Shown piece by piece: positions 138 through 20,747 of a DNA stretch of 20,747 nt. The stretch lies in UHGV virus genome UHGV-0017034, one strand, 5' to 3'. The position numbers and the translations under genes are program-made. Every line of letters begins with the position of its first letter. Position 1 is the first letter of the stretch. Origin of the DNA: a virus. The notes under the pieces were generated by a model. It was not told the DNA's origin, did not search any database, and was given only the letters and a program-made list of their open reading frames with translations.

Positions 138-608
138 TTAGAGTTTCTGGAAAACAGCTTGTTTAACCGGAGCACCATCTACTACAAAGGTGAAGGTACG
201 GCCTACTACAGCATCCTCACCACCAGTCATGGTAGTTTTAGACAGGAAGCCGTTATAAGCGATATGTACACCAGATTTTTTCGTAGCGTCGATGTAGTAA
301 GCAATTTTAATCTGTACGCGCTTACCGTCTTCGGTTGCTTTAATCAGTTTTTCGTGTACTTCGTTACCCGGCATGTAGTTGATCGAAAGTTCGATATCCG
401 GTACAGACATACGACCAACCAGCTTACGGTTATACGGACCACCGAAGTTAGGAACATCGACAGTAGAACGTTCTACACCAGTTTCCGGGAAAGCCGCACA
501 TTCTGGAATTTCCAGATAGCTTTCACTGTCAAGATCGGTGTTAGTTACTTCTTCATGCAGAAACAGACCAACGAGGCCACCAGAAAAAATATCAAATTTA
601 GTAGTCAT
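138..608 (-). CDS. Major tail tube protein, lambda gpV-like N-terminal tube domain (156 aa)
   Basis: ORF with AAGGA RBS; motifs INYMPGNE...GKRVQIKI and YNGFLSKTTMTGGEDAVVGRTFTFVVDG resemble lambda gpV (AWMPGEQG...AYKIRF and FRGWVSS...TRTVKVTNVG) as recalled; last gene before a strong terminator, as expected for a highly expressed tube protein. Confidence 0.55.
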   Translation of the reverse strand: MTTKFDIFSGGLVGLFLHEEVTNTDLDSESYLEIPECAAFPETGVERSTVDVPNFGGPYNRKLVGRMSVPDIELSINYMPGNEVHEKLIKATEDGKRVQIKIAYYIDATKKSGVHIAYNGFLSKTTMTGGEDAVVGRTFTFVVDGAPVKQAVFQKL

Positions 609-662: not shown

Positions 663-965
663 TTAGCGGTTGCTCAAACGTCTATAACGAAGATGAGCGA
701 TCCCCCTATTTGTGCTAACGGTAATTACCGCCCCTTGCGGTGCAATACAAGAATGAATCTGTCCCCAATCATGACCCTTATGGCTTCCAGAAACACACAA
801 ACCATGAATAAGCAATTCAGAGTCACCACCGCCACCACCGGAAGAATGAGCACAGAATGAAATAGTCCCGAAAGCGTCGGCTGTCCAACCGTTAGGAATA
901 TCAAACCATCCTTGATTTGCTTTACCCGCCCTATTCCCCAAAGCGCCATCTACCCAAAATGCCAT
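663..965 (-). CDS. Small FDIPNGW-motif protein, paralog 3 of 3 (100 aa), function unknown
   Basis: ORF; start ATG overlaps the upstream stop (TAATG); shares M-x-(F/Y)-W, FDIPNGW, Gly/His-rich core and TVS motifs with the two upstream ORFs. Confidence 0.6.
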   Translation of the reverse strand: MAFWVDGALGNRAGKANQGWFDIPNGWTADAFGTISFCAHSSGGGGGDSELLIHGLCVSGSHKGHDWGQIHSCIAPQGAVITVSTNRGIAHLRYRRLSNR

Positions 966-1270
966 TAGTGCATTCTCCTGAATTTAAAATAATGCAAACT
1001 ACCTTTACCCAATGTAAAGCTAACGGTAGCACCAGCGCCAACTAAAGAACTAGCGCCCCAACTCCCAGCATCACCAGCATGATGACCTGATTCAATCAAT
1101 CCATTTACAGCCAATTCAGAATCAAGATCACCAGCACCGTTAATGGCTTCCATATGAGCAAAAACAATTCCGCATGAATCAGTAACCCAGCCGTTGGGGA
1201 TATCAAAATATCCACCATTAGCCCAAATACTAATAGCGTTTGACATTCTTTGATTTATCCATCCAGCCAT
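965..1270 (-). CDS. Small FDIPNGW-motif protein, paralog 2 of 3 (101 aa), function unknown
   Basis: ORF; 2-nt gap to the upstream stop; YFDIPNGW, GAGDLDSEL, WG and TVSFTLG...HYFKF motifs conserved with its neighbours. Confidence 0.6.
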   Translation of the reverse strand: MAGWINQRMSNAISIWANGGYFDIPNGWVTDSCGIVFAHMEAINGAGDLDSELAVNGLIESGHHAGDAGSWGASSLVGAGATVSFTLGKGSLHYFKFRRMH

Positions 1271-1272
1271 AA

Positions 1273-1569
1273 TTAAAACTCCATGAATTTAAAATATTCA
1301 ACACCACCTTCACCCCCTAAACCAAAGGAGACGGTGCAGCCAGCAGGAACAAACGAATTTATAGTAGATCCCCAATTGGTCCCACCACGACGACGAGCAA
1401 CGGTCAAACCATCTACGTTAATATGTGCATCAGACCACCCACCACCAGCATTATGACGCATTACAGCGACACCAGCACGAGCAGTACCATAGCCGTTAGG
1501 AATATCAAATACATGCCATTTTAAAGCATCGATTTTAGTATTAATTTCACTACTTACCCAATATCCCAT
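1273..1569 (-). CDS. Small FDIPNGY-motif protein, paralog 1 of 3 (98 aa), function unknown
   Basis: ORF with AAGGA RBS 7 nt upstream; VFDIPNGY, GGGWSD, NWG and TVSFGLG...EYFKF motifs. Confidence 0.6.
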   Translation of the reverse strand: MGYWVSSEINTKIDALKWHVFDIPNGYGTARAGVAVMRHNAGGGWSDAHINVDGLTVARRRGGTNWGSTINSFVPAGCTVSFGLGGEGGVEYFKFMEF

Positions 1570-1607: not shown

Positions 1608-4600
1608 TTACCCTAATTTAGCTTCAATTGCAGCAAGACGTTCACGAAGAAGTTTATTTTCTTCGCTCATTTCTTGGACCGCTTTAATTAAAAGCGCGTT
1701 CACTGCGGAGTTTGAAATTGTTAAAATTTCTTCTGGGTTATCAAAACCACCAATTTTTGCGGTTTTAACAGCTTCCGGTAATACCTCTTGTAAATCCTGT
1801 GCGATAATACCAATCTCATGACCTATAACTTCTCGGTCATTAAGAGATTTAACTTTATCGTAGGTTTTAACTTTGAGTTTATTTACCTTATCCACCGCAT
1901 TTTCTTCGTAATCTTCAACATTAATTTTCAGACGACGATCGGAACGAATATAAACATCGTTAAAGTTTCCGTTACCAGTGGCATGAAATTCTCCACTTGC
2001 ATGGAATTGATAATCAGCACCCTGAACATGAAGAACCGCTGCCGCAGTATTATTACTATCACCGGGACAATGAACGTCCATAGCAGCGATGTAGTTACGC
2101 CCCCAATCAACCGCTTTCCAAATAGCATGAGCACTATCAACGCTTTGTTGACAGTCAACCAACAAACCAGCAGGTCGGTCTCTCCATGCAACATATGCAC
2201 CACCAGAAACCTCACCACGGATAAGTCCTTGATCTGCGGCATAAGGAACACGCCCTTCCAGTTTAATCATCGCGCCCTGGAAGTGATGTGTAAATTGTCC
2301 ACCGTGGTTATTGCGAATATGTAAAATACCCTCATCTGTAGCCCAGATAACAGCCTTTTCCGTATCGCTATCATCTCTAAACCAGACGTGGCGAGCACCA
2401 GCAGAGTTTTTGATAGTAATCCCGGAAGGTCCATGCACAGTAAAAGCGCCAGCAACATCAAACATCAAACTGTTATCTGTCCTACGTTCAGTATAGAAGT
2501 GATAACCTTTGGAATCACCGACTTCCATCACTGCCGCGCGACCAACTTCTGAATTTCCCCAATTATTAATAGAGAATCGTTCAGAGCTATTATTCATCTG
2601 ATTTAGGTATAATGTACCATCAGTGAATGTTTCGCCAAAGAATCTGGTTTTAACGCCGTTAGTACCCCCCACGCGTTCAAATTCAGCCAAGAAACCTTTG
2701 GAATCTCGCATACTCAAAACGTTATTGCGTCCTGTATTACTGTTACCCCAATGGATTAATTCAATATAGTCCATTGACTGACGAGACCCTGATCTAAACA
2801 CCATATTATCTTCGATGCGGGTGCTACCATCAATTCCCAGATGTAAACAGCGTGCGGTAGCTGTGCCACCTAGATCTAATCCACCTTCGGCGAAATCATA
2901 ACTAAATGGTCTACGAGTGTTCCACGTCCCAAAGGAATCTTTTAAATCGGTAGTAAGAATATGGAAGCTAGAACCATCATTACGAAGGATTAAACCATAG
3001 TTACCACCTTTGACAGCCAAACGAGCATTTTCAGATAATGCCACTTCGCTATTCATTACAATTTTCTGGCCTCTACCGCCAGTAATATGTAATTCACCGT
3101 CTTCAATCAGGTTTATAGAGTTTTGACCGTTGTCGTTCCACCAAATAAAATCTTTGGTCTGACCATCACCGAAGCCAAACCAGCCATTACGAACATCTTG
3201 TCCAGTGCGATAATCCATGAAATTAAAATGACTTGATTCGTTTGGTCCTCGACGAATATCAATACCAGAATTTCCAGTAACACCGCCATCCAATGTTAAT
3301 TTCTTGACATGTAACCCGGATGTTGCTGACAGCAATAATTCCTGATTTGTATCTTCGTATCCAGTAGCAAGACGATATGCGTTATCATCAACTGTCTCAT
3401 GCCAGATTGTAGCTGGTGCACAACTACGGAAGCGACGCAACATCTTTTTAGCATTTGTCGGTTGTTCGTTCAAATGCTCAATGTCATATTGGCCTTGATG
3501 ATTGCCAGCAAAATTTAATGTTCCACGGTTGCTAAAGTTATTGAACGATGAAATGTTAAGAGCATCAAAAATTTCGTCTGCAACAGGTTTTTCACCACCC
3601 AGATATTCAGGAGTATCCAACAGGTTTAAAGAAACACCACCGGAAGAAACTTGATATTCTGCTAAAACAAATCCTGTATGTGCACCGTAGTAAGCGTAAA
3701 GATCGTAATTGTCGCCATCGGTTGGAATAGCGCAAAAATGTTGTTCATAATGCCAAATAGTATAATACGCATTGAATACAACACCTTTCGGGCTATTGTT
3801 GCCGCATCGAATCACCAATTCGATAATATTGGCTTGTCCATTATGTCCTACGTTATAACCGTTACCACCAACCAAACGGATCTTAGCCGTGCGACCGTGT
3901 TGTTGTGGCATTGTCAAAGTGCCTAGTTTAAACCAACCACCCTCGATACCAAAATTAAGCGTCTTCTGGAACAGTCGGTCAATTTCTGCTTTCGAATATG
4001 CGCCAATTTCAGCCGGAGTAGGTTTATCACCTTCATGATACATGCGGTGAGAATATGCCAAATGTCCCAATTCATCATAGCCGTATGTTCTTACCGTATG
4101 AACCGGATTAGACCCATAAGTGAACTCAAAACCACGAGCATGATTAACGCCGGATGGGTGCGGAACATGCAAGATCATTGCAATATGACCCGCCAGGTCA
4201 TTCATGCGGAATGCACCAAAGTAGTCAAGATTACGCGCACTCGGATCATCAAAATAGTTTGCGGTCTTAGACAGCAAATAACCATCAGTGTAAGTGTTTA
4301 CGTGCTTTTTGATGTACTTGCCATCACTCGATCCATCGGCTGCATCAATACGGCTTTCTAAACGTGCCAGTTCGGAATCAGTGTAAGACTTGTTATTGTC
4401 AACTTTGCTATGAATTGCTGTATTTTTGGCTTCAACATCACGGGTTAATGCTGCGACGTTATCCGCTGCCTCTTGCTTATTGGCTGCAATCACACCAGTA
4501 AGGTTATTGTAGGTGTCAGTTAACTGATTTTCCGCATAGGCGTGATTTGCTGCGATAGTGCGGTCAGTTTCTGCCTTAATCAAATCAACTTTGTCATTGA

Positions 4601-5132
4601 TTGTTTTGTGATTGCTTGCGATGGTTGCATCGGTACGGGATTTAATATCATCAACTTTTTTATTGATGCGGGTGTCCAGTTCCTGAGTTGCTACAGCAGC
4701 CGCAATTTTATTAGCGTTGATGGTATCCGACAATTCAGCTTTAACACCAGCAAGATCGGAAGCAGCTTTATTTTTATTGGCATCGATTGTCGCGTCGGTT
4801 TCGCGTTTAATTACATCAACTTTATTGTTAATTTCTGCATGATTTGCTGCGATAGTAGAATCAGTAGTTTGTTTAATTTCATCTACTTTAGCGTGAATAT
4901 TGCGGTCATTTACTGCAATTGTGCTATCCAATTCTTGTTTGTTAGCATCAACTTTAGATTCTAGTGCCGCGTGAGTTTCAGGAGAAACAGAGATTTGAAC
5001 TACTTCATGATCTCGGTCTTTGGTGAAAATAACATGGTCTTTAAGGTTGATTGCTACCTCACCGACCTGTAATTGTTCCGGCGTTGGTTTTTTGCCAGAA
5101 ACATTTGTTCGTTTAAATTGGATCGACTGCAT
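1608..5132 (-). CDS. Fiber protein (1174 aa) with N-terminal coiled-coil repeats and C-terminal S74 intramolecular-chaperone autoprotease domain
   Basis: Long ORF with GAGGTGA RBS; residues ~50-260 are ~22-aa repeats (D-x-T-I-A-A-N-H...K-V-D-x-I-K); internal GYHFYTERRTDNSLMFDV resembles the P2 gpH / T4 gp37-type distal fiber region as recalled; C-terminus SDRRLKINVEDYEENAVDKVNKLKVKTYDK...LLRERLAAIEAKLG matches the S74 chaperone domain of endosialidase / T5 L-shaped fiber type. Confidence 0.85.
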   Translation of the reverse strand: MQSIQFKRTNVSGKKPTPEQLQVGEVAINLKDHVIFTKDRDHEVVQISVSPETHAALESKVDANKQELDSTIAVNDRNIHAKVDEIKQTTDSTIAANHAEINNKVDVIKRETDATIDANKNKAASDLAGVKAELSDTINANKIAAAVATQELDTRINKKVDDIKSRTDATIASNHKTINDKVDLIKAETDRTIAANHAYAENQLTDTYNNLTGVIAANKQEAADNVAALTRDVEAKNTAIHSKVDNNKSYTDSELARLESRIDAADGSSDGKYIKKHVNTYTDGYLLSKTANYFDDPSARNLDYFGAFRMNDLAGHIAMILHVPHPSGVNHARGFEFTYGSNPVHTVRTYGYDELGHLAYSHRMYHEGDKPTPAEIGAYSKAEIDRLFQKTLNFGIEGGWFKLGTLTMPQQHGRTAKIRLVGGNGYNVGHNGQANIIELVIRCGNNSPKGVVFNAYYTIWHYEQHFCAIPTDGDNYDLYAYYGAHTGFVLAEYQVSSGGVSLNLLDTPEYLGGEKPVADEIFDALNISSFNNFSNRGTLNFAGNHQGQYDIEHLNEQPTNAKKMLRRFRSCAPATIWHETVDDNAYRLATGYEDTNQELLLSATSGLHVKKLTLDGGVTGNSGIDIRRGPNESSHFNFMDYRTGQDVRNGWFGFGDGQTKDFIWWNDNGQNSINLIEDGELHITGGRGQKIVMNSEVALSENARLAVKGGNYGLILRNDGSSFHILTTDLKDSFGTWNTRRPFSYDFAEGGLDLGGTATARCLHLGIDGSTRIEDNMVFRSGSRQSMDYIELIHWGNSNTGRNNVLSMRDSKGFLAEFERVGGTNGVKTRFFGETFTDGTLYLNQMNNSSERFSINNWGNSEVGRAAVMEVGDSKGYHFYTERRTDNSLMFDVAGAFTVHGPSGITIKNSAGARHVWFRDDSDTEKAVIWATDEGILHIRNNHGGQFTHHFQGAMIKLEGRVPYAADQGLIRGEVSGGAYVAWRDRPAGLLVDCQQSVDSAHAIWKAVDWGRNYIAAMDVHCPGDSNNTAAAVLHVQGADYQFHASGEFHATGNGNFNDVYIRSDRRLKINVEDYEENAVDKVNKLKVKTYDKVKSLNDREVIGHEIGIIAQDLQEVLPEAVKTAKIGGFDNPEEILTISNSAVNALLIKAVQEMSEENKLLRERLAAIEAKLG
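1611..1943 (-). other. S74-type intramolecular chaperone domain (C-terminal ~111 aa of the fiber), predicted to be auto-cleaved
   Basis: Domain begins at SDRRLKINVED, with the conserved Ser-Asp-Arg-Arg-Leu-Lys start and a terminal coiled coil. Confidence 0.65.
4355..4985 (-). repeat. In-frame ~66-nt (22-aa) tandem repeats encoding the fiber coiled-coil shaft
   Basis: Successive units DSTIAANHAEINNKVDVIKRET, DATIASNHKTINDKVDLIKAET, DRTIAANHAYAENQL and others, read from the translation. Confidence 0.6.
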
Positions 5133-5205: not shown

Positions 5206-6039
5206 TCAGTATTCCCCGAAGTCGATCCGGTCATGGATAGAAACGGCTTCAATCTCGGCTGGTGTCGGTTTTTCTTCTGTGGAATACACTTTCACCCATC
5301 CAGAATTACCGTCTTTCTGGACTGTGCGAACTCGTAAACGTGGTGCGCCGGAAGCGGTGCAAGTTAATTGCCATCCACCATCTTCATTAGGTTGAGCGTG
5401 AATTAGTGAAGTATCAGCACTAAATGGATTAGATGCGCTTGATCCCTGATAAGTTACGAAACGGTTTCCGGCTAACGCTTCGCTATCAATACCCCCTGTA
5501 AATGGAGATACGCCAGCACCAATACCAAAATCACCCTGACGTAAGATCCGGCCTTCGGTCGCGATACCCCTTGCAAGAATCCCGCCATCTGGTTCAAGTT
5601 TAAATTCCAGTGTTACCGCTTTGTTATCGCTACCACGGGTTTTATGTGATGTGACGTAAGCATCATAGATGACATAGTAACCAGTGTTAGCAGCACTATA
5701 ACCAGAGTTCACAACATAGAACATACGGAAGCGTAAAGGTGTTTTATCCTCTACCGCTTTCATCAACATGTCTTGATGTTCGTCATCCAGAACACGGTTT
5801 ACTACTAACGTAGTTGATTCAAGTTTACGATAGCCAGCCAACTTACCAGTAACATCATGGTCATATTCTTCTAACGTCTGGATCTCTGTGGATTCGGTGA
5901 TCGTAGGGAATGCTGCGATGTTCTCGATAGGACTAAATGCAGGATCGAAAAAGTCCGGCTGGTTATCCACCATAGTAGACACGGAGACTTCAACATGCGA
6001 CCCCGTGAAAATGTCTAAGTTATCTTGTGTAATATTCAT
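5206..6039 (-). CDS. Virion structural protein (277 aa) of uncertain role; C-terminus carries the KPTPAEI motif also present in the fiber
   Basis: ORF with AAGGGG RBS 6 nt upstream; C-terminal EEKPTPAEIEAVSIHDRIDF parallels fiber GDKPTPAEIGAYSKAEIDRLF; beta-rich composition. Confidence 0.6.
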   Translation of the reverse strand: MNITQDNLDIFTGSHVEVSVSTMVDNQPDFFDPAFSPIENIAAFPTITESTEIQTLEEYDHDVTGKLAGYRKLESTTLVVNRVLDDEHQDMLMKAVEDKTPLRFRMFYVVNSGYSAANTGYYVIYDAYVTSHKTRGSDNKAVTLEFKLEPDGGILARGIATEGRILRQGDFGIGAGVSPFTGGIDSEALAGNRFVTYQGSSASNPFSADTSLIHAQPNEDGGWQLTCTASGAPRLRVRTVQKDGNSGWVKVYSTEEKPTPAEIEAVSIHDRIDFGEY

Positions 6040-13067: not shown

Positions 13068-13670
13068 ATGCTAATTAATCAGCAACAAAGAGATGAATTA
13101 GAATTAGCCTTGTCTTGTACCGATCATGAATATCGTTTACCAGTTAAGCATAAGCATTTAAAAACCGACTACACTACATCTGGCTTTAGTCGTGAGGAAG
13201 CGAAAGAGATTTTAATAGAATTTTACCGCGATAATGGTTATACAGACGTTCACAACTTCTTTAAGAAGCATAGAACATCACATACAGAGTTTCGGAGAGT
13301 CCGAGATTGGTTTGATTTTGATATCAAGCGTTATTATCGAGTGGATGACGGTCCTATCTATCGGTTGCAGTGGAAGCCGATCCGAGAAGTGTTGAAACAG
13401 AAGAGATTGAATCACGCAATTACACGCTATCGTAACGAGGCTTTCAAGAAAGGCTATGGTGATACAAGGGAACTATTCGTTGAACTCGCTAACGTGCGTT
13501 ATAGCCACTATTACAACGATCCTAAAGGGTTCTTTGAAGTGCTTCGCAAGGTTGATATAAGTCGGGGTACATACTATTCACGGTTGAAGAAGTACGGGAT
13601 TAAGGCAGAGTTCTTTATGAGTATTGACGATGGAGAACTTTTTCCGATAAAATGTAAGTCCTCTAAATAA
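13068..13670 (+). CDS. Basic DNA-binding-like protein (200 aa) with a C-terminal HTH motif
   Basis: AAGGGGG RBS 4 nt upstream; C-terminal [16 protein letters not shown] resembles the HTH of the two small paralogs at 13705 and 17159; divergent from terL. Confidence 0.55.
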
Positions 13671-13704
13671 AGGTGAACATTCACTTTAATTTGGAGAAAT
13701 GACT

Positions 13705-13932
13705 ATGACTACTAAAGCTACTCGCGGTCGTCCTGCCCGTTTTAACGCTGAACAGATGGCTGATATTGCCTACGCTTACTATACAGCGGATCGTGGTAAG
13801 GAAGCGAAAGAACAGATTCTTAGTGAACATGGGATCTCAATCGCCCAATTCTATAAGAATATGAAGAAGTTAGACATTAAATTCTATGTTCAGATCGGTG
13901 ATGGTCAGATCGTAGAAGCAACAGGTTTTTGA
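13705..13932 (+). CDS. Small HTH protein (75 aa), paralog of the 17159-17338 product
   Basis: N-terminal ATRGRPARF; HGISIAQFYKNMKKLDIK HTH-like motif; GGAG RBS is correctly spaced for the ATG at 13705 rather than 13699. Confidence 0.55.
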   Translation: MTTKATRGRPARFNAEQMADIAYAYYTADRGKEAKEQILSEHGISIAQFYKNMKKLDIKFYVQIGDGQIVEATGF

Positions 13933-13947
13933 GTTTTGATTCTCTTT

Positions 13948-13972
13948 GCCACTCTTCGGAGTGGCTTTTTTG
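13948..13972 (+). terminator. Rho-independent terminator (plus strand)
   Basis: GCCACUC-UUCG-GAGUGGC perfect 7-bp stem, UUCG loop, followed by U6. Confidence 0.75.
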
Positions 13973-14034
13973 TATCCGCACAAAACTGAGCACATCTCTA
14001 TGATCTATAGATGCCAGCAAAAATGCTGTTATCT

Positions 14035-14071
14035 ATAAAAACAAAAAGCCCAGCGCAATTATGCGCCGGGC
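14035..14071 (-). terminator. Rho-independent terminator (minus strand), convergent with the previous one
   Basis: Minus-strand RNA GCCCGGCGC-AUAAUU-GCGCUGGGC (9-bp stem with one G-U) followed by UUUUUGUUUUUAU. Confidence 0.7.
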
Positions 14072-14077
14072 GATTAA

Positions 14078-14893
14078 TTACAGTCCGAAGTGTTCCAGTG
14101 ATCCAACATTCTGGCGGAGACGTTCAGCCGCTTTATTTTGAATCAGAATAGTGTTATTTGGCTGCGGCAGTTTAAGAGTTGCTTTCTGTTCTTCTTCCAG
14201 AACACCCAATTCCACCAACACCGGAAGCACATCAACAGTAAAAGAAAGCTGATAGTGAGTGTTCATGCTGCAAAACGGTAAAGCGGAATCATTAGCAACA
14301 TACCCACACGGCTTGTTATTTTCATCATAGACGCGTTCAATGTAGCCAGCAGTACGTAAGGCCGTCAGTGCTTCTTTAACCTTCGTAGCGCCCTTTTTAG
14401 CGCCTAACAGACGGGTCATTGAATGGCTATCAACGGATTTGCGATAATGAAGTTCAATCAGTTGTTTGTTTTCGCGAGTTTTCTTTAACGCCAGTTCGAT
14501 CCAGTCGGTTTCTTCAAAGTCTGCATACGGGTTAACGGCTAAACGTTCCTGCCGCAGTTTTTCATTTTCTTCTTTCAGTCGTTTCCATTCCTGAATAACA
14601 ACCATTCGACGCTTAACATCGTAACCAGTGACAAGAGTCAGCGTCATTTCTTCGTCTAAGTGATATTCGGTTTGTTCACGTCCACACTGATCAAGATAGG
14701 TGCGCTCAAAACTGAGCACATCTAATTCCAGAGCATCGAGCATGGATTTAATATCACGTTTAACGTTTTTGTGTTCTTTTCCGGTAAATTCAGCGATCTG
14801 ACGAGAAGACATGGTCAGTGGTTTGGTGTTATCAACAACCAGAGACACGGAAGCAGTTTTAACAGCAGTATTCATAGCAGTAACAGTATTCAT
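14078..14893 (-). CDS. Rha-family phage regulatory protein (antirepressor-like), 271 aa
   Basis: N-terminal LTMSSRQIAEFTGKEHKNVKRDIKSMLDALELD...FERTYLDQCGREQTEYHLDEEMTLTLVTGYD matches the Rha domain pattern as recalled; AAGGGG RBS. Confidence 0.6.
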   Translation of the reverse strand: MNTVTAMNTAVKTASVSLVVDNTKPLTMSSRQIAEFTGKEHKNVKRDIKSMLDALELDVLSFERTYLDQCGREQTEYHLDEEMTLTLVTGYDVKRRMVVIQEWKRLKEENEKLRQERLAVNPYADFEETDWIELALKKTRENKQLIELHYRKSVDSHSMTRLLGAKKGATKVKEALTALRTAGYIERVYDENNKPCGYVANDSALPFCSMNTHYQLSFTVDVLPVLVELGVLEEEQKATLKLPQPNNTILIQNKAAERLRQNVGSLEHFGL

Positions 14894-14981
14894 AATTAAA
14901 TTCCCCTTAAACGGTTTAGTGATTTGGTCCTCCTAGTTCCGGCAGCATCACCGGAACATTTTTATTTATGATAGAAATTTA

Positions 14982-15314
14982 TTACCAATCGATTTCTACT
15001 TGGTCTTCTTCATAATAAGGAATCGCATATTCATAACGCCAATTTTCGATGATTTCACGTTCTTCATTAGTAAGAAGGTGATTGTTAACTGGAGTCGCAT
15101 TGTGATTACCAGCTTCGAATTGCTCGCGAACTTCCAGCATTGCATGAATACCAGTTAAGGTCATCAGATCAAACGGAACATGCATACTACGGGAGATAGT
15201 TTCACGGGATACGCCCCAATCATTTTCTACATGGCTAGGGGTTACAGAAACGGTTTTGCCGGAGATTTTAACAGTCCAGTCATACAGGGATTTAGTGATG
15301 GTAAATTCTTTCAT
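14982..15314 (-). CDS. Hypothetical protein (110 aa)
   Basis: ORF with AGAGGA RBS 7 nt upstream; no recognisable family. Confidence 0.6.
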   Translation of the reverse strand: MKEFTITKSLYDWTVKISGKTVSVTPSHVENDWGVSRETISRSMHVPFDLMTLTGIHAMLEVREQFEAGNHNATPVNNHLLTNEEREIIENWRYEYAIPYYEEDQVEIDW

Positions 15315-15370
15315 GTTACATCCTCTTTACAAATCTAGGTCAAATATAATAAAAGTTGTCAAGTGCGATA

Positions 15371-15399
15371 ATCATAAAAAAGTCATAAATTTTTGTCAA
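15371..15399 (-). promoter_or_regulatory. Sigma70-type promoter (minus strand) TTGACA-17-TATGAT
   Basis: -35 at 15394-15399 and -10 at 15371-15376 read on the minus strand; lies ~50 nt upstream of the 14982-15314 gene. Confidence 0.55.
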
Positions 15400-15412
15400 T
15401 ATACCTTGACAA
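15393..15412. promoter_or_regulatory. Operator-like inverted repeat TTGTCAA-N6-TTGACAA overlapping the -35
   Basis: Perfect 7-bp inverted repeat; the 9-mer GTCAAGTGC nearby (15358-15366) recurs at 16778-16786. Confidence 0.4.
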
Positions 15413-15434
15413 GACGCCAAAGGGTTGACCTAAC

Positions 15435-15893
15435 TTACAGCATATCTAAGCCTTCATCGTAACCGTAGAAGCCACCGTGAGAAGAGAAAGCGATTGGTGC
15501 GTAGTCTTCGTCTTCCTCATCTTCTTCATCTTGTTCTGGGGCTTCCTGAGCGGTTTCTTTGCCGTAATCAGCCATAATCTGGTCAAGATCGGCGATCCCA
15601 TAGTAAGAGCCTAAATCAACGTCATATTCACGGACTTGAAACGGCAGATCATCACGAACAATAATTGCTGGAATATCGTTGTATTGAAGACGACCTTCAT
15701 CAGTAAAACAGTCGATGATCACAGTAGGACGACCATTTCGTTTTAAAGCGTAGAAAGCAGTTGAGTAGTTGGAGTCTTCGGAATGACGAATGATGTTATA
15801 ACCACGATTAGCGAAAACTTCTAGCATATGGAAGTTGCCATAGTTTTCAGAGTCCAGACCCAGAAGTACGAAAGGAGTTTTAGTATTGATCAT
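15435..15893 (-). CDS. Hypothetical protein (152 aa) with a strongly acidic C-terminal tail
   Basis: ORF with GAGGA RBS; C-terminus EAPEQDEEDEEDEDYAPIAFSSHGGFYGYDEGLDML; no recognisable family. Confidence 0.6.
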   Translation of the reverse strand: MINTKTPFVLLGLDSENYGNFHMLEVFANRGYNIIRHSEDSNYSTAFYALKRNGRPTVIIDCFTDEGRLQYNDIPAIIVRDDLPFQVREYDVDLGSYYGIADLDQIMADYGKETAQEAPEQDEEDEEDEDYAPIAFSSHGGFYGYDEGLDML

Positions 15894-16085
15894 AGTGGAA
15901 ATCCTCTAAAAGAAAGTGAATCAAGTAAGTTCACTATTATTTATAACGAGAATTTTTTATCTATTTGGAAGTGATTGGATTCAGTCGGGCTAAAGCCCTC
16001 CTTCATATATTTGATTAAATCATCATCAAAACGAAGAAGTATCTTTAGAATATAAGAATCTTTCTTTTGGAGAAATTATAATCAG

Positions 16086-16350
16086 GAAGCAATTTAGCAA
16101 CCGAAGGTTGCAATCCCGAAGGGATACCAATACCTTTCTAGAAAGTGATTGTTACTCACTTCGTTCGTTTACTAGAATCAGTTAGTAACTAGTATTAAAT
16201 CCCTTTCTAAGAAAATCCTTTCAAAAGCGAGTGAACGCCGTAGGCGTGAACGTGAGCGAAGCGAACTATCCAATCCCTTTCGAATCCTGCTTGCAGGTCT
16301 TAGAAGGTGTTGATGGGCGCTTCGCGCACGGCTACGCCGTATTCTTTTTG
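16086..16350 (+). ncRNA. Candidate structured noncoding RNA (hairpin-dense, ORF-free, ends at a terminator)
   Basis: Hairpins GCAACC-GAA-GGTTGC (16097-16111), ATCCC-GAA-GGGAT (16113-16125), palindrome CTTTCTAGAAAG (16134-16145), AGTGA/TCACT, ACGCC-GTA-GGCGT, CCTGC-TT-GCAGG; stops in all frames; weak TATAAT at ~16074; 5' end uncertain. Confidence 0.3.
16317..16350 (+). terminator. Rho-independent terminator (plus strand) with tandem hairpins
   Basis: GCGC-UUC-GCGC then ACGGC-UAC-GCCGU followed by AUUCUUUUUG; no protein-coding gene upstream on this strand. Confidence 0.6.
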
Positions 16351-16471
16351 CGAGATCTTTCTTGAACGTAGTGAGAGAAAACGAGCAAAAAGGAGAACGT
16401 TAGTTCGAATTTTATATTCTATGGTCTGTGGGGTGAAATGTCTTTCAAGATCATACACTTATGAGATTGAA

Positions 16472-16593
16472 GTGTAGGGTTAGTGTAGGTGTGTAGGTTT
16501 CATAGTGTAGGTTTGAGGGTGTTATAGTGTAGGTTTACTGACTAGTGTAGTGTAGGCCAATCCCTTTAAAGCGTAGGTTTGTAGTGTAGGTTT
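16472..16593. repeat. Iteron array: about 9 copies of GTGTAGG(TTT)
   Basis: Copies start at 16472, 16483, 16491, 16505, 16527, 16550, 16584, with a variant GCGTAGGTTT at 16571 and a half-site at 16545; spacing often 11 or 22-23 bp; flanked by an AT-rich tract (16594-16700). Confidence 0.7.
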
Positions 16594-16698
16594 TTCATCA
16601 AAAATTTTGATAGAAAATTCTTGTATATTATTTAACCGGAAAATCACCAAAAATCGCTGTAAATGCATGATTTAAAAAGAATTATCAAAAGGTCGCCG

Positions 16699-16707
16699 TG
16701 CTATAAT
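16699..16707 (+). promoter_or_regulatory. Extended -10 promoter element TGCTATAAT
   Basis: TG-n-TATAAT perfect match; -35 weak. Confidence 0.35.
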
Positions 16708-16787
16708 AGGTTATAAAGGTTGATAATCGTTATCCGCCATTTTCACACAAAAATTTTGATAGTCATTTCTCGCTTAGGTCAAGTGCA

Positions 16788-16816
16788 TTGACAACTGTCA
16801 AGGATTATTTTATACT
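16788..16816 (+). promoter_or_regulatory. Sigma70 consensus promoter TTGACA-17-TATACT with overlapping palindrome TTGACA-AC-TGTCAA
   Basis: -35 at 16788-16793, -10 at 16811-16816, exact 17-bp spacer; GTCAAGTGC 9-mer at 16778-16786 shared with the 15358 region. Confidence 0.6.
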
Positions 16817-17158
16817 TTTTCTCATTGGTAGGGGTTGAAATTTTCGAAACAATCCCCATATTGATGATAAACAAGATTTTTTCGTGTATAAATACATGCA
16901 TGAAATGATTGTTCACTTCTGAAAATCCCCTGATTCACTGTTAACACACACAGCACTGGTTAAACACACAGTGCCTTTTCGATTGAATAATGTACGAATT
17001 GATTAATTATTAATCTTCTCTTTAGCAATTCGTGCTCCCGCTGATCAGATATACAGTGGTTTTGCAGGGTTTTCTGAAATGACTTTTATAAATAGAAGTA
17101 TCGAGGGCGAAAAGCTCTTTTTATTGTCCTTATTAATCCACATTTGAGGAATCTACTT

Positions 17159-17338
17159 ATGGCTAGACCTGTTAAGTTTACTCGTGAAATGATTGTTGAT
17201 ATTGCTAAACGCTTTTATGGCGATACTGAACGAGGCGGCGAGAATTTCTTTAAGAAGGAAGGAATTGATAGAAGCGGATTCTATAAGCTAATGAAGAAAT
17301 ACGAAATTCAGATAAAGATTAACGTTCAAGTTTGTTAA
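17159..17338 (+). CDS. Small HTH protein (59 aa), paralog of the 13705-13932 product
   Basis: GAGGAA RBS 9 nt upstream of ATG 17159 (the track ORF begins at a TTG at 17144); MARPVKFTREMIVDIAKRFY...GIDRSGFYKLMKKYEIQ parallels the other paralog. Confidence 0.55.
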   Translation: MARPVKFTREMIVDIAKRFYGDTERGGENFFKKEGIDRSGFYKLMKKYEIQIKINVQVC

Positions 17339-17379
17339 TCCACTTTCACTGAGAATTATACGATGGCTTTAAAAATAAA

Positions 17380-17409
17380 AAGCCTCCCTTGTTGCAGCAA
17401 AGGAGGCTT
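17380..17409. promoter_or_regulatory. Long hairpin between the small HTH gene and the 333-aa gene; terminator-like only in minus orientation
   Basis: AAGCCUCC...GGAGGCUU with inner UUGC/GCAA pairing; plus-strand A-run upstream gives a U-tract only on the minus strand. Confidence 0.4.
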
Positions 17410-17454
17410 GAAATGAACAATTAAAACTAACACAGCATTCAGGAGTATTTATAA

Positions 17455-18456
17455 ATGAAAAATTCTAAGCGCATCACCTTCAACCTGTTTATTAAATCCA
17501 ACGGCAAACTGAACATTACCGTCATGGAAGGTAAAGCAAGCAAACAAGACAAATCCTTTGAAGTAGTATCCGGTAAGACTCTGACCGAAATGCGTCAGAA
17601 TGCTGGCATCAAAGACGGTGCTGAATGGCAGATCACTAACCGTTTCGACAAACGTCACGTTAAACCTACACTGGTAGAAGGTGAATCCGTTTATTGCTTC
17701 GCTCGTGCTGTTAAAGCCGATGAAACTTACTATCTCGCTGTTGTTAAAACTGCTTCCGGCTTCCGTGCTGTAATGCATCACAAGAGCAAGCGTAACGAAT
17801 ACGGCGTAGAGACCCAGGAAGTCGCAAAACGCTTCCGTACTGTTGCTACCGAATCCACTGTAAAGGATGTTTCTGGTACTGTTAACACCGTTAAAGGCGG
17901 TTCCTTCTACAACCACGCATTACAGGTTACTTCCTCCTTCTTCTGCAAAAAAGAAGCACAGAAAGAAGTTGCTCCGGTAGTAGTTGAAGAAGTTAAAGAA
18001 GAAGTTGCAGTGGTTGAATCTTCCGAAGTTGAAGCACTGAAAGCACGCATTGCTGAACTGGAAGCTGAAAACGCATCTCTGAAAGCTGAACTGGCAGCAC
18101 AGGAAACCACTTTCGAAGTAGCAGCGGTTGAAGTTGAAGCAGTTGAAGAAAAATCCATTGATGAAGAACTGGAAGAACTCCTTAACTATCGCTGGGGTAA
18201 CGGTGAAAAAGTAGAACAGGAAGAACAGAAAGAAGCTGATCCGGTAGTAGTTCCGGTTGAAGAAAAATCCGCACCTGTTACTAACTTTGAATCCCTGCGC
18301 AATAACTTTATGGCTAAATTCAAAACCACTTGGGAAGATACCGAAGAAGAACAAGAAGAGATTGAAGTAAACGAAGACGAGATCCGCGAAGCACAGATGG
18401 CACTGCATGACGCTATCTACGACACCAACTACAGCGCCTACGCATACGCAGCTTAA
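17455..18456 (+). CDS. Hypothetical abundant protein (333 aa): N-terminal globular domain plus acidic Glu/Val/Ala-rich coiled coil
   Basis: AGGAG RBS; codon usage visibly different from neighbours (CGT, CTG, GGT, TCC, ACC, GAA, AAA, TTC, TAC preferred), typical of highly expressed E. coli-type genes; leucine-zipper-like EALKARIAELEAENASLKAELAA. Confidence 0.8.
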   Translation: MKNSKRITFNLFIKSNGKLNITVMEGKASKQDKSFEVVSGKTLTEMRQNAGIKDGAEWQITNRFDKRHVKPTLVEGESVYCFARAVKADETYYLAVVKTASGFRAVMHHKSKRNEYGVETQEVAKRFRTVATESTVKDVSGTVNTVKGGSFYNHALQVTSSFFCKKEAQKEVAPVVVEEVKEEVAVVESSEVEALKARIAELEAENASLKAELAAQETTFEVAAVEVEAVEEKSIDEELEELLNYRWGNGEKVEQEEQKEADPVVVPVEEKSAPVTNFESLRNNFMAKFKTTWEDTEEEQEEIEVNEDEIREAQMALHDAIYDTNYSAYAYAA

Positions 18457-18471
18457 TAGAGGGGTGAATCT

Positions 18472-18714
18472 ATGATGAATCAAAACAAAGAATTTCTGGG
18501 TAATCTGATGTTAGAAATTACCAAAATGAAAGAAAGAATGGTAGCGATGGAATCAGAGATTAAAACACTTAAAGCTGATAATAAGGCGTTGAGAAAGTCC
18601 TTAAAGCTGATTGATGAGACTAATGCGGTTATGATGGATCATGTATTCCCTGAGTGGCGAAATGAAACTAAACCTACACAACATAAGAAACTTACACTTC
18701 GAATTGTTGCATAA
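18472..18714 (+). CDS. Small coiled-coil protein (80 aa)
   Basis: GAGGGG RBS; heptad-like MKERMVAMESEIKTLKADNKALRKSLKLI; starts 16 nt after the upstream stop. Confidence 0.55.
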   Translation: MMNQNKEFLGNLMLEITKMKERMVAMESEIKTLKADNKALRKSLKLIDETNAVMMDHVFPEWRNETKPTQHKKLTLRIVA

Positions 18715-18736
18715 AAAAAAGGACTCCGAAGAGTCC
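18713..18736 (-). terminator. Bidirectional-type terminator hairpin (U8 tract on the minus strand)
   Basis: GGACUC-CGAA/UUCG-GAGUCC perfect 6-bp stem; plus-strand A8 at 18713-18720 gives U8 after the stem on the minus strand; also lies immediately 3' of the plus-strand 80-aa gene. Confidence 0.65.
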
Positions 18737-18812
18737 CTAGTAAGTTTAGGTTAGGTTTGCACAACAAAGATGAGGTTATAATGAACATAATGCTACATTA
18801 TTCTTTAAAGCC

Positions 18813-18838
18813 AGAAAAATAACCGCCCCGAAGGGCGG
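18813..18838 (-). terminator. Rho-independent terminator (minus strand) ending the small-terminase transcript
   Basis: Minus-strand RNA CCGCCC-UUCG-GGGCGG followed by UUAUUUUUCU. Confidence 0.65.
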
Positions 18839-19000
18839 GAGGATTAATACTCAATCTATACTTGTTATGTTTTTATGTTGTATAGATCCTGACTATGAAA
18901 ACACTGTACTGGAAGTGTGTTTTTATGGCTTTTAATCGGGAATCCTCAAAGAAGATCCCCTGTTAATAACCATAAGGAGAAAAGGCAGATTACACTATTA

Positions 19001-19171
19001 TTTAGTATCCTTTTTACAGCAACTAAAAAGAATAAACAAAAAGAAGCATACCCAGCCGTAAGGCGTACCGATTAGAAATTTGAAAAACACCACCAGCGAT
19101 ATAAAAATCAATTTAATGCCAGCGACGATAGTCAAAAACAGCAGAGTAGCAAAGTAGACAAAAAGATCCAT
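19001..19171 (-). CDS. Small hydrophobic membrane protein (56 aa, about two TM segments), below the ORF-track cutoff
   Basis: AAGAGG RBS 7 nt upstream of ATG; hand translation MDLFVYFATLLFLTIVAGIKLIFISLVVFFKFLIGTPYGWVCFFLFILFSCCKKDTK. Confidence 0.5.
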
Positions 19172-19224
19172 AGATAATCCTCTTTGAAAACGACCATCAT
19201 CTATAGTTCAATTCATCGATTTAA

Positions 19225-19326
19225 TTAATGATACTTGAAAGCGTTACACAAAGTAGAAATGCCAATATGTGCCAGTGAATATACGATAGTTAATCCTACA
19301 GCCAGATAAATCAAAAATTCAACCAT
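19225..19326 (-). CDS. Possible 33-aa hydrophobic peptide
   Basis: GAGGA about 9 nt upstream; hand translation MVEFLIYLAVGLTIVYSLAHIGISTLCNAFKYH; very short, weakly supported. Confidence 0.3.
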   Translation of the reverse strand: MVEFLIYLAVGLTIVYSLAHIGISTLCNAFKYH

Positions 19327-19356
19327 AGGTAAATCCTCAAATAAGAAAAAGGTTAG

Positions 19357-19375
19357 CGGGGGATGTTCTCCCCCG
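19357..19375 (-). promoter_or_regulatory. Hairpin downstream of the small terminase gene
   Basis: CGGGGGA-N5-UCCCCCG perfect 7-bp stem; U-rich tract begins about 6 nt after the stem on the minus strand. Confidence 0.35.
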
Positions 19376-19426
19376 TAGACGTTGACCAGCTCAACATCCT
19401 TCACGTATATATTTAGTATCTAATTT

Positions 19427-19978
19427 TTAAGACACATCAAATTCATCGTCTTCTTCTGGTTCTTGTTCCGGTTCATCCATTAATGGTAATTCTTCTTCCT
19501 CGTCTTCTCCCAAATCTGCATTTTCGAACAAGTCCCCTACTTCATTTAAACGACGCTCGATAATCTCTCTTAGCTTATTCTTCAATGTTTTCTGGTCATT
19601 GGCAGATTCGAGAATTTCTAGGGCATCGATTGTGGCGATCTGCAAAATAGTCTGCTTCACTTTCCCGCAATATTCCGCTAGCTCCTGCTCCACATACCCG
19701 ACGGGAATCAGGAGATTCATCGCTTCCTGGTTCTCTCGTTCGGCTGCATCTGCTAATGCTCTCTCACGGCGTAATTTCTCTACGTCGATTTGTTCCTTGA
19801 CAGTAGTTTCTTTAAGCGGGTTGATGATATTTTTCAAGACCCATTCTGTTCCTTCTTTGGCTGGCACGCGGCGGGTATTGGTATTAAATGGCATTCCTCG
19901 TTCTTGCCATTTCTTAGCGGCGTTAATTGTATAGCCGTATAAACGGGAAATTTCTGTAAGGGTTAATTCTTCTTTCAT
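19427..19978 (-). CDS. terS: Terminase small subunit, lambda Nu1-like (183 aa from the RBS-supported start)
   Basis: LTLTEISRLYGYTINAAKKWQERGMPF parallels the lambda Nu1 N-terminal HTH (IFGASIRTIQNWQEQGMPV as recalled); acidic C-terminal tail; GGAGGA sits 8 nt upstream of Met-6 (19978), while the first ATG at 19993 has no SD. Confidence 0.65.
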   Translation of the reverse strand: MKEELTLTEISRLYGYTINAAKKWQERGMPFNTNTRRVPAKEGTEWVLKNIINPLKETTVKEQIDVEKLRRERALADAAERENQEAMNLLIPVGYVEQELAEYCGKVKQTILQIATIDALEILESANDQKTLKNKLREIIERRLNEVGDLFENADLGEDEEEELPLMDEPEQEPEEDDEFDVS

Positions 19979-20089
19979 CCGGTTATCCTCCATTAAATTT
20001 GCGTAAAATTATTTATCTGATCTGCGCATTCAGGAGAGCGCCTAAAACGCTTTATAACGAAGGGAAAGATCGAGGCATGGAAAGGGATT

Positions 20090-20140
20090 GGCGGGTGTTA
20101 ATAGTCGCGTAGCGACCGCGCTGGTGGGCTGCACTGCACC
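20090..20140. other. Candidate cos / packaging-initiation site
   Basis: GC-rich island in AT-rich DNA about 120 bp upstream of the Nu1-like gene, containing the perfect palindrome GTCGC-GTA-GCGAC (20104-20116); GGAAAGGGA-like repeats lie between it and the gene. Confidence 0.25.
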
Positions 20141-20217
20141 TGTTTTGAAATCTCACACGTACATCAAAAACCGGGGTGCCGAAAACTCCCTTTATTTCAT
20201 CCGTGGAACAGTACCTT

Positions 20218-20246
20218 TTGATTTGGTCAAGTCTTTTTTATAAATA
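20218..20246 (+). promoter_or_regulatory. Possible promoter for the 20278 gene (TTGATT, short spacer, TATAAA/ATAAAT)
   Basis: -35-like TTGATT at 20218-20223 and -10-like TATAAA at 20239-20244; spacer is 15-16 nt, so weak. Confidence 0.3.
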
Positions 20247-20277
20247 ATCGAAAATATTTTTCACGCGAGGGCAAATC

Positions 20278-20583
20278 ATGAAGACTAAAGATATTAAGAT
20301 TGAATTTGAAACTGTTGATGACGTTCGGGAACATCGCATTGATTCTACTGGCTGCATCTTCCAGCTTACTAACTCCCCTATTGGATTGATTATCTATGTA
20401 GCAGAAGATGACGTGTACGCTATATGGGATGGACAGGATGAGTTTAAAGGCGGGAATAGCCATCTGATCAATACTCATGAGGGATTTGATCCGACTCCTG
20501 TCTGTATGCTTGCTTATCACGTAACACTGGATGAACTACCGGAAGCAAGCGCGCGTATCCGTAGAATGAAAGACATTAAGTGA
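20278..20583 (+). CDS. Hypothetical protein (101 aa)
   Basis: GAGGG RBS 5 nt upstream of ATG; followed 20 nt later by a strong terminator; divergent from terS. Confidence 0.6.
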   Translation: MKTKDIKIEFETVDDVREHRIDSTGCIFQLTNSPIGLIIYVAEDDVYAIWDGQDEFKGGNSHLINTHEGFDPTPVCMLAYHVTLDELPEASARIRRMKDIK

Positions 20584-20602
20584 TGTAAGTGATTGATTCT
20601 AT

Positions 20603-20633
20603 AGCCCTGTCCTTGTGATGGGGCTTTTTTATT
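20603..20633 (+). terminator. Rho-independent terminator (plus strand)
   Basis: AGCCCUGUC-CUUGU-GAUGGGGCU (9-bp stem with two G-U) followed by UUUUUUAUU. Confidence 0.7.
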
Positions 20634-20649
20634 GGAAAATCGGGTGTTA

Positions 20650-20747
<98 letters not shown>

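Follow-up and report, generated by a model that had tools for sequence, protein, structure and literature searches.

The gene triplet and its fibre

We examined three small tandem genes, here called A, B and C, in the virus genome UHGV-0017034, a stretch of 20,747 nucleotides that is referred to below as the window. A first-pass annotation, made from the letters of the DNA, had described them as three translationally coupled paralogous open reading frames (ORFs) of 98, 101 and 100 aa between a fibre gene and a tail-tube gene, and all three were present on the minus strand (Table 1). The stop codon of A and the start codon of B were 2 nt apart (TAA-tt-ATG), those of B and C overlapped (TAATG), and each start had its own Shine-Dalgarno sequence (AAGGA, GGAG and AGGAG for A, B and C, respectively), which agrees with the proposed coupling. 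The three proteins could be aligned end to end and shared an N-terminal M-x-x-W, the FDIPNG[WY] and WG motifs and a C-terminal strand; M1, W4, FDIPNG, several glycines and WG were invariant among them. Local tblastn searches of one paralog against another gave E-values of 1e-8 to 7e-12, and with the whole-length alignment these place the paralogy, at the level of sequence similarity, well beyond chance. The dN/dS values of A, B and C were between 0.04 and 0.31 in every comparison, and the three are real genes under purifying selection. When related prophages were compared, the triplet had a dS of 0.3–1.3, versus 0.05–0.1 for the adjacent tube gene; divergence so far above that of the tube gene is a pattern typical of host-range cassettes.

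The product of the fibre gene upstream of A matched phrog_1699, 'long tail fiber distal subunit' (E 4e-137). Its layout comprised a Mtd_N-like N-terminal anchor, coiled-coil repeats, a Gp34_trimer region, a distal part of the T2/S16 gp37 type and a C-terminal Peptidase_S74 domain. This last domain and the strand just before the cleavage site aligned to gp37 of phage S16 (PDB 6F45); from what is established for its family, the domain is presumed to cleave itself off, and its removal would expose the fibre tip. The distal 1 kb of the fibre gene had 88–94% nucleotide identity to Tequatrovirus gp37, and ~3.4 kb spanning the fibre and the triplet had 87% nucleotide identity to Krischvirus G37-3. 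The stem-loop that separates the fibre gene from A had a fold z-score of -2.0 and was kept in position in nine loci of the family described below, with stems of different sequence in two metagenomic contigs (L009 and L018); the depositors of Krischvirus G2248 labelled it a putative terminator. It may attenuate or stabilise the transcript and thereby set the expression ratio of the fibre to the triplet products.

Table 1. Coordinates of the triplet, the fibre elements and the gp38-related loci (the first eight rows refer to the window)
Feature	Coordinates	Strand	Description
Paralog A	1569..1273	minus	98 aa; class signature C-terminal F-M-E-F; from the ORF list
Paralog B	1270..965	minus	101 aa; class found in the middle position in every locus
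Paralog C	965..663	minus	100 aa; class signature GGGGDSEL and C-terminal Y-R-R-L
Tail-tube gene	608..138	minus	156 aa, lambda-type; Pfam Phage_TTP_12, phrog_158; downstream of C
Tail fibre gene	1608..5132	minus	1174 aa; Pfam PF21446 and PF13884; phrog_1699
Mature distal fibre tip	1941..2645	minus	about aa 830-1064; ends at the conserved YIRS|D cleavage motif
Peptidase_S74 intramolecular chaperone domain	1611..1940	minus	PF13884, E 5e-15, aa 1064-1123
Stem-loop	1582..1601	minus	8 bp, -13.3 kcal/mol; flanked by the fibre stop codon and A's Shine-Dalgarno sequence
P0026, 70-aa ORF	L031 5001..5213; L032 5001..5213		nine residues MVYNIVIGA... followed by class C residues 41-100
Krischvirus gp38 locus, occupied	L025 4486..5262 (Cognac); L026 6142..6918 (KFS-EC)
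Krischvirus gp38 locus, empty	L019 ~45918..45978; L027 6252..6312; L029 1475..1535

The other window genes encoded a terminase, a portal, a protease-capsid fusion, a connector, the tube, G/GT, a tape measure, a pb9-like Dit and gpJ, and this set, terminase through gpJ, identifies the window as a temperate siphovirus. From its sequence we assign it to an E. coli siphovirus prophage: the 1-kb triplet region matched the chromosomes of E. coli PK8568 and ETEC1703 at 100% identity and was found in 24 of 5426 complete E. coli genomes. In those chromosomes PGAP labels A, B and C 'hypothetical protein'.

None of the three proteins had a match in Pfam (E<=1), PHROGs, NCBIfam or the PDB sequences, in line with the first-pass statement that the family was not one it recognised, and the profile searches placed none of them in a known connector or chaperone family. 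A word-indexed search of 5.8 billion proteins matched 35 clusters, all unnamed and all from E. coli, Shigella or Salmonella. An exhaustive hidden Markov model (HMM) search of 1.84 billion representatives matched 19 clusters, at least two of which were spurious: the giant 'homologs' P0042 and P0052 were summed repeat matches to ankyrin and NHL repeat proteins. Among the other matches of this search, P0050 had no Pfam family and P0054 was another repeat protein; PDB matches to the 'Pizza' designed propellers were also spurious. We found no description in the searchable literature of the triplet, nor of it under G37-3, UPWr_E1 or heterotrimeric or C1q-like phage adhesins. A role as secreted proteins, lipoproteins or superinfection-exclusion factors was set aside, as a reading of the N-termini showed neither signal peptide nor lipobox.

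The family was assembled from 14 loci: E. coli prophages (L003-L006), Salmonella prophages (L007 and L008), the Krischvirus genomes G37-3, G2248 and UPWr_E1, and metagenomic contigs (L009/L010, L015/L016, L017 and L018). In all 14 loci we found an A-B-C triplet, in the same order and directly 3' of a large fibre ending in S74, with members of about 98, 101–132 and 98–110 aa; class B carried an N-terminal extension of 15–30 aa in the Salmonella and metagenomic members. Each protein was closest to the same-position proteins of other loci, and from this positional orthology it follows that the triplication is older than all known members and that each class has been kept. In the T4-like Krischvirus the triplet was located between gp37 and the holin gene, and the fibre of L009 carries a Phage_T7_tail N-terminus, so that the module also serves T7-type fibres. 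Of the position between fibre and tube genes to which the first-pass annotation had given weight, the tie to the fibre therefore stands and the tie to the tube does not, since the triplet follows S74 fibres into myovirus and T7-type contexts.

Exchange with the gp38 adhesin

In phages of the T2/S16 type, S74 is on gp37 and, after its cleavage, a monomer of the adhesin gp38 caps the tip and recognises the receptor (PMC9569957; PMC6851490). We found that the triplet and T2/S16-type gp38 are mutually exclusive, interchangeable cassettes. The first case was in two sister prophages of the window lineage, L031 and L032, whose tube protein was 93% identical at the amino acid level; the fibre of L032 was 91% identical over 1168 residues and had the same tip. 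Both prophages encoded a 259-aa protein with the Pfam domains Gp38_N and GP38, 84% identical to gp38 of RB3, which took up exactly the site of A, B and codons 1–37 of C. It was followed by a 70-aa remnant of C (P0026), and the DNA homology to the window resumed within C. The first nine residues of P0026 were those that start a small Krischvirus ORF preceding the holin gene, and, as read from this junction, P0026 marks the recombination joint by which a T-even gp38 cassette entered a siphovirus prophage.

A second exchange was found within Krischvirus, in which the gp38 locus lies ~55 kb from gp37 among small early-region genes. That gp38 is apart from gp37 in this genus is also described in a preprint (10.64898/2026.04.02.716166). 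Cognac is an RB49-like phage whose gp38 is an experimentally supported fibre adhesin (PMC9569957); its gp38 was at this remote locus, between genes of 291 nt and 222 nt, and nothing lay between gp37 and the small ORF before the holin gene. KFS-EC likewise had gp38 at the remote locus, and a frameshifted A/C chimera after gp37. In G37-3, G2248 and UPWr_E1 the remote locus was empty (a 61-nt gap) and an intact triplet followed gp37. A tblastn search across the entire G37-3 genome, except 1.3 kb inside gp34, did not find gp38; as a positive control, the same query found Cognac gp38 (E 1e-31).

Several observations were made around these loci. The KFS-EC chimera (L002, MH560358; 3839..4268) joins class A up to 'GLGGEGG' to mid class C ('GDSELLL...') and then runs into a frameshift, which, on the sequence, indicates paralog recombination followed by decay in a phage with gp38 elsewhere. 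An extra gene of ~715 aa, with no Pfam match, was located near the vacant gp38 locus (L027 7894..10038, G2248_00084; L030 4690..6837, UPWr_E1); it was carried by the two Krischviruses with triplet allele 2 (allele 1 being that of the window and G37-3) and absent from G37-3, KFS-EC and Cognac. The gp37 proteins of RB3 and JE01 and the fibres of the gp38-linked prophages end in ...KISKYFKF, A ends in ...EYFKFMEF and B in ...HYFKFRRMH; the shared YFKF ending may be due to chance or a trace of recombination history.

The same fibre tips were found with either cassette. The last 200 residues of the mature window fibre were 96% identical to gp37 of the Tequatrovirus JE01 and 90% to that of RB3, and in both of these phages gp37 is followed by gp38. 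A second triplet-linked tip type (L004, G2248 and UPWr_E1) was 75–82% identical to the tips of gp37 in JS10, UFV06 and FL23, where gp38 again comes next.

Alleles of A and B assorted independently of the fibre-tip type. Between L005 and L004 the tips were 4% identical, with 100% identity in A and 96% in B; between the window and L005 the corresponding values were 94%, 78% and 75%, and between the window and G37-3 they were 70%, 99% and 98%. A and B alleles co-segregated, and C was more uniform. Such independence from the tip is what one would expect if a modular cap sat on a docking surface that is conserved, and argues against a chaperone tuned to the tip sequence. Co-variation of the triplet with one specific tip domain was ruled out by the several tip types and this independent assortment. 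Of the roles that the first-pass annotation had offered, an adhesin-like module is the one favoured by the interchangeability with gp38.

Predicted fold and the proposed fibre cap

AlphaFold2 models of B and C (pLDDT, or predicted local distance difference test, of 85.6 and 80.1, respectively) consisted of a low-confidence N-terminal helix followed by an eight-stranded beta-sandwich. Among their best fold matches were C1q/TNF heads, carbohydrate-binding modules and phage fibre or C1q-domain proteins, and a Foldseek search against viral models returned tail-fibre, C1q-domain and collagen-repeat proteins (E 1e-4 to 1e-2). The predicted fold is thus a small jelly roll such as fibre heads have, and the models are compatible with the label 'C1q/TNF-like'. 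Neither Pfam nor the profile search of PDB sequences gave a C1q or TNF match for A, B or C; a collagen IV chain in the latter search (E = 1) was noise.

Variability within the classes was concentrated in three loops, beta3-4, beta5-6 and beta7-8, which, judging from strand parity, should lie at the end opposite both termini. The conserved parts were the FDIPNG motif, the beta4-5 and beta6-7 turns and the C-terminal strand. The class-specific C-termini were charge-complementary, acidic in A (FMEF) and basic in B and C (FRRM and YRRL, respectively). The histidines were mostly variable and only one position was conserved, in B and C, at which class A mostly had Arg or Gln; the earlier suggestion that the His-rich segments bind metal consequently has no support.

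On the reading we favour, with a probability of roughly 0.55, the fibre has a receptor-binding cap (adhesin) encoded apart from it, which has A, B and C as its three chains and plays the role of gp38. The cap would probably be heterotrimeric, and the triplet probably sets host range. As we picture it, the fibre would trimerise via its own C-terminal S74 chaperone, which, to judge from its family, would then cleave itself off. The coupled genes would yield equal amounts of A, B and C, each chain giving a short N-terminal helix, in most cases tipped by Trp4, and an eight-stranded jelly roll. One copy of each, at a stoichiometry of 1:1:1, would form a pseudo-threefold C1q/TNF-like head, and the three N-terminal helices might dock this head onto three equivalent pockets at the base left by fibre processing, by analogy with gp38; the mature distal tip is the proposed docking platform. 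On the virion, the jelly rolls would touch the bacterial receptor with the variable loops at their far end.

The analogy with gp38 concerns mainly the N-terminus. Gp38 docks by three N-terminal helices, from which an apical Trp inserts every 120 degrees into equivalent pockets of gp37 (PMC6851490). The helix sequences in RB3 and Cognac are PGW-IGSS, QRW-MSQA and PCW/PAY-MSQ; in A, B and C the N-terminus is a predicted helix with the sequence M-x-x-W-(V/I), in which Trp4 is one of only five residues invariant in a 27-sequence alignment. A position-specific scoring matrix (PSSM) of the three Trp-helices of gp38 had its best window at the N-terminus in close members of the family. Several results weigh against a gp38-like cap. 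The likeness of the A, B and C N-termini to the Trp-helices was not significant with this PSSM (shuffle p 0.02–0.5), and the most distant loci have L, Q, M or Y instead of Trp4 in classes A and C, so that we keep the docking-helix step as an analogy only. No sequence homology to gp38 was detected when the family profile was compared with RB3 gp38 (hhalign, probability 0.3%), and the triplet also follows the tip types of L015 and L018, which lie outside the comparison with gp38 partners.

Indirect support for a heterotrimer comes from the invariant one-of-each composition and gene order, from the translational coupling, from the co-segregating A and B alleles and from the charge-complementary, class-specific C-termini. 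The hetero-oligomer that the first-pass annotation had considered would, at 1:1:1, agree with the constant gene order and with the positional orthology. In a different arrangement, A, B and C would be three alternative homotrimeric caps (A3, B3 and C3) docking on the threefold tip, with mixed specificities on each virion broadening host range. A homotrimer would fit most simply on a tip with threefold symmetry, and heads of the TNF/C1q-like and phage fibre kinds mostly have this form. Every paralog comes with an N-terminal helix of its own, and evolutionary rates differ among the classes, C being far better conserved than A or B. Yet variation in copy number and presence or absence of the members would then be expected, and all 14 loci hold one of each class in the same order; the only exceptions were decay products in gp38-bearing genomes. 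Given also that A and B alleles co-segregate and that the class-specific C-termini are complementary in charge, we regard the homotrimeric arrangement as unlikely.

Genes directly 3' of fibre genes often encode chaperones, such as T4 gp38, lambda Tfa and Mu gpU, and the triplet was always next to a fibre with S74, which alone is shared by all tip types. The first-pass annotation had listed fibre assembly factors as an alternative; A, B and C would in this case be non-virion proteins, either similar to T4 gp38 or Tfa or aiding or regulating S74 cleavage, that are released after folding. Against this, the fibre already has an intramolecular chaperone, and the 96%-identical tip of JE01 folds without the triplet. 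Dedicated chaperones usually co-vary with their client, whereas the A and B alleles are uncoupled from the tip. Pfam, PHROGs and NCBIfam also gave no similarity to the Tfa or gp38-chaperone families, and what stands in for the triplet elsewhere is no chaperone but a virion protein, the gp38 adhesin. A role in assembly is thus quite unlikely, and the earlier suggestion is weakened above all by the S74 chaperone of the fibre itself and by the independence of the A and B alleles from tip type. The position in the window, between head-tail joining genes and the tube gene, is a common site of small tail-completion genes and had left room for siphovirus neck or tail-completion proteins that lie next to the fibre by coincidence. 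The same triplet occurs between gp37 and the holin gene of Krischvirus and after a T7-type fibre, where such proteins would have no role, and sister prophages have gp38 instead of it; this distribution across morphotypes effectively refutes the neck-protein explanation.

Taking the receptor-binding cap further, we suggest, with less confidence and short of an even chance, that the triplet is the first known heterotrimeric receptor-binding tip of a phage fibre, C1q-like, seated on the same processed gp37 tip as gp38 and moving as a cassette among siphoviruses, myoviruses and podoviruses. If so, S74-processed fibre ends would be a universal 'socket' that accepts structurally unrelated adhesins, and each fibre would have three independently evolvable receptor-binding faces.

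Relation to known fibre systems and neighbouring genes

The closest parallel is gp38 (Gp38_N PF21721 and GP38 PF05268; PDB 6F45). Like the triplet, it comes directly after an S74-bearing, gp37-type fibre, pairs with the same tips (up to 96% identical) in the same slot and the same phage lineages, and has a similar coding size (about 260 aa vs 3 x 100 aa); the three Trp-tipped N-terminal helices of gp38 have a counterpart in the three predicted N-terminal helices of the triplet, mostly with Trp4. The build is different: gp38 is a single polypeptide, a beta-helix and polyglycine-II sandwich that sits as a monomer on a trimer, whereas the triplet consists of three polypeptides, predicted jelly rolls, and could restore pseudo-threefold symmetry. 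The architecture of glycine-rich motifs and hypervariable segments of gp38 was absent from the triplet, whose glycine runs come down to a single short one, GGGGG in C. The triplet thus appears to work like gp38 without being a member of its family, to which it is linked neither by sequence nor by predicted fold.

In the C1q globular head, three tandem genes supply the A, B and C chains of a heterotrimer, and a heterotrimer is also known from the TNF superfamily, lymphotoxin alpha1-beta2. The triplet domains are smaller (~80 aa vs ~130 aa for C1q/TNF heads), the chains are encoded apart from the stalk, unlike those of C1q and TNF, and they do not belong to C1q/TNF by sequence. If the cap is heterotrimeric, three tandem paralogs building one head would be a striking parallel to C1q. 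The heads of the lactococcal phage receptor-binding protein (RBP), the CDHS-1 RBP and PBSX XepA/YomS are C-terminal domains of a homotrimeric fibre protein, while the triplet members are separate paralogous products. The assembly chaperones T4 gp38, T4 gp57A and lambda Tfa/Mu gpU are, like the triplet, small and encoded immediately downstream of the fibre gene. They have no sequence or predicted-fold similarity to it, their client fibres have no intramolecular chaperone, unlike the S74-bearing window fibre, and, in contrast to the triplet alleles, their variation follows that of the fibre tip. What is new here is the protein family and its proposed three-chain build; a separately encoded adhesin that caps an S74-processed fibre was already known.

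The host range of T-even-like and many other coliphages is now predicted and engineered through gp37 or gp38, and Krischvirus fibre papers treat gp38 as the adhesin. In G37-3, G2248 and UPWr_E1, which lack gp38, the proteins likely to bind the receptor carry no annotation beyond 'hypothetical protein'; a poultry phage-cocktail study names UPWr_E1. As an alternative adhesin cassette, the triplet would close this gap in receptor-prediction pipelines, would provide a second, non-homologous plug-in for the same fibre socket that is useful in host-range engineering, and would reveal the processed S74 fibre end as a docking platform of a general kind.

Further observations concern gp38 elsewhere and the surroundings of the fibre gene. 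The Stx1a-converting phage Stx1_2409 (LC727903) had an unannotated tblastn match at 45232..45351 to aa 8-47 of RB3 gp38 (47.5% identity, E 8e-4). The match spans the N-terminal attachment helices only, and hints that gp38-type docking helices also occur in lambdoid Stx phages. In the window, the fibre gene lies between head-tail connector genes and the tube gene, an unusual spot for a siphovirus side fibre. It is preceded by a 277-aa gene (5206..6039, minus strand) that was kept in all sister prophages (277/276 aa) and whose N-terminal ~150 aa match the tail-tube family phrog_158 (E 5e-9); from this match, the protein may be a tube-like collar or anchor bearing the fibre. Searches turned up no tRNA genes at the far end of the window (13068..20747), which contained about 1.5 kb without any ORF of at least 90 aa (15894..17448), several ORFs of 110–333 aa without a Pfam match, and an anti-repressor-like gene (14078..14893; phrog_63).

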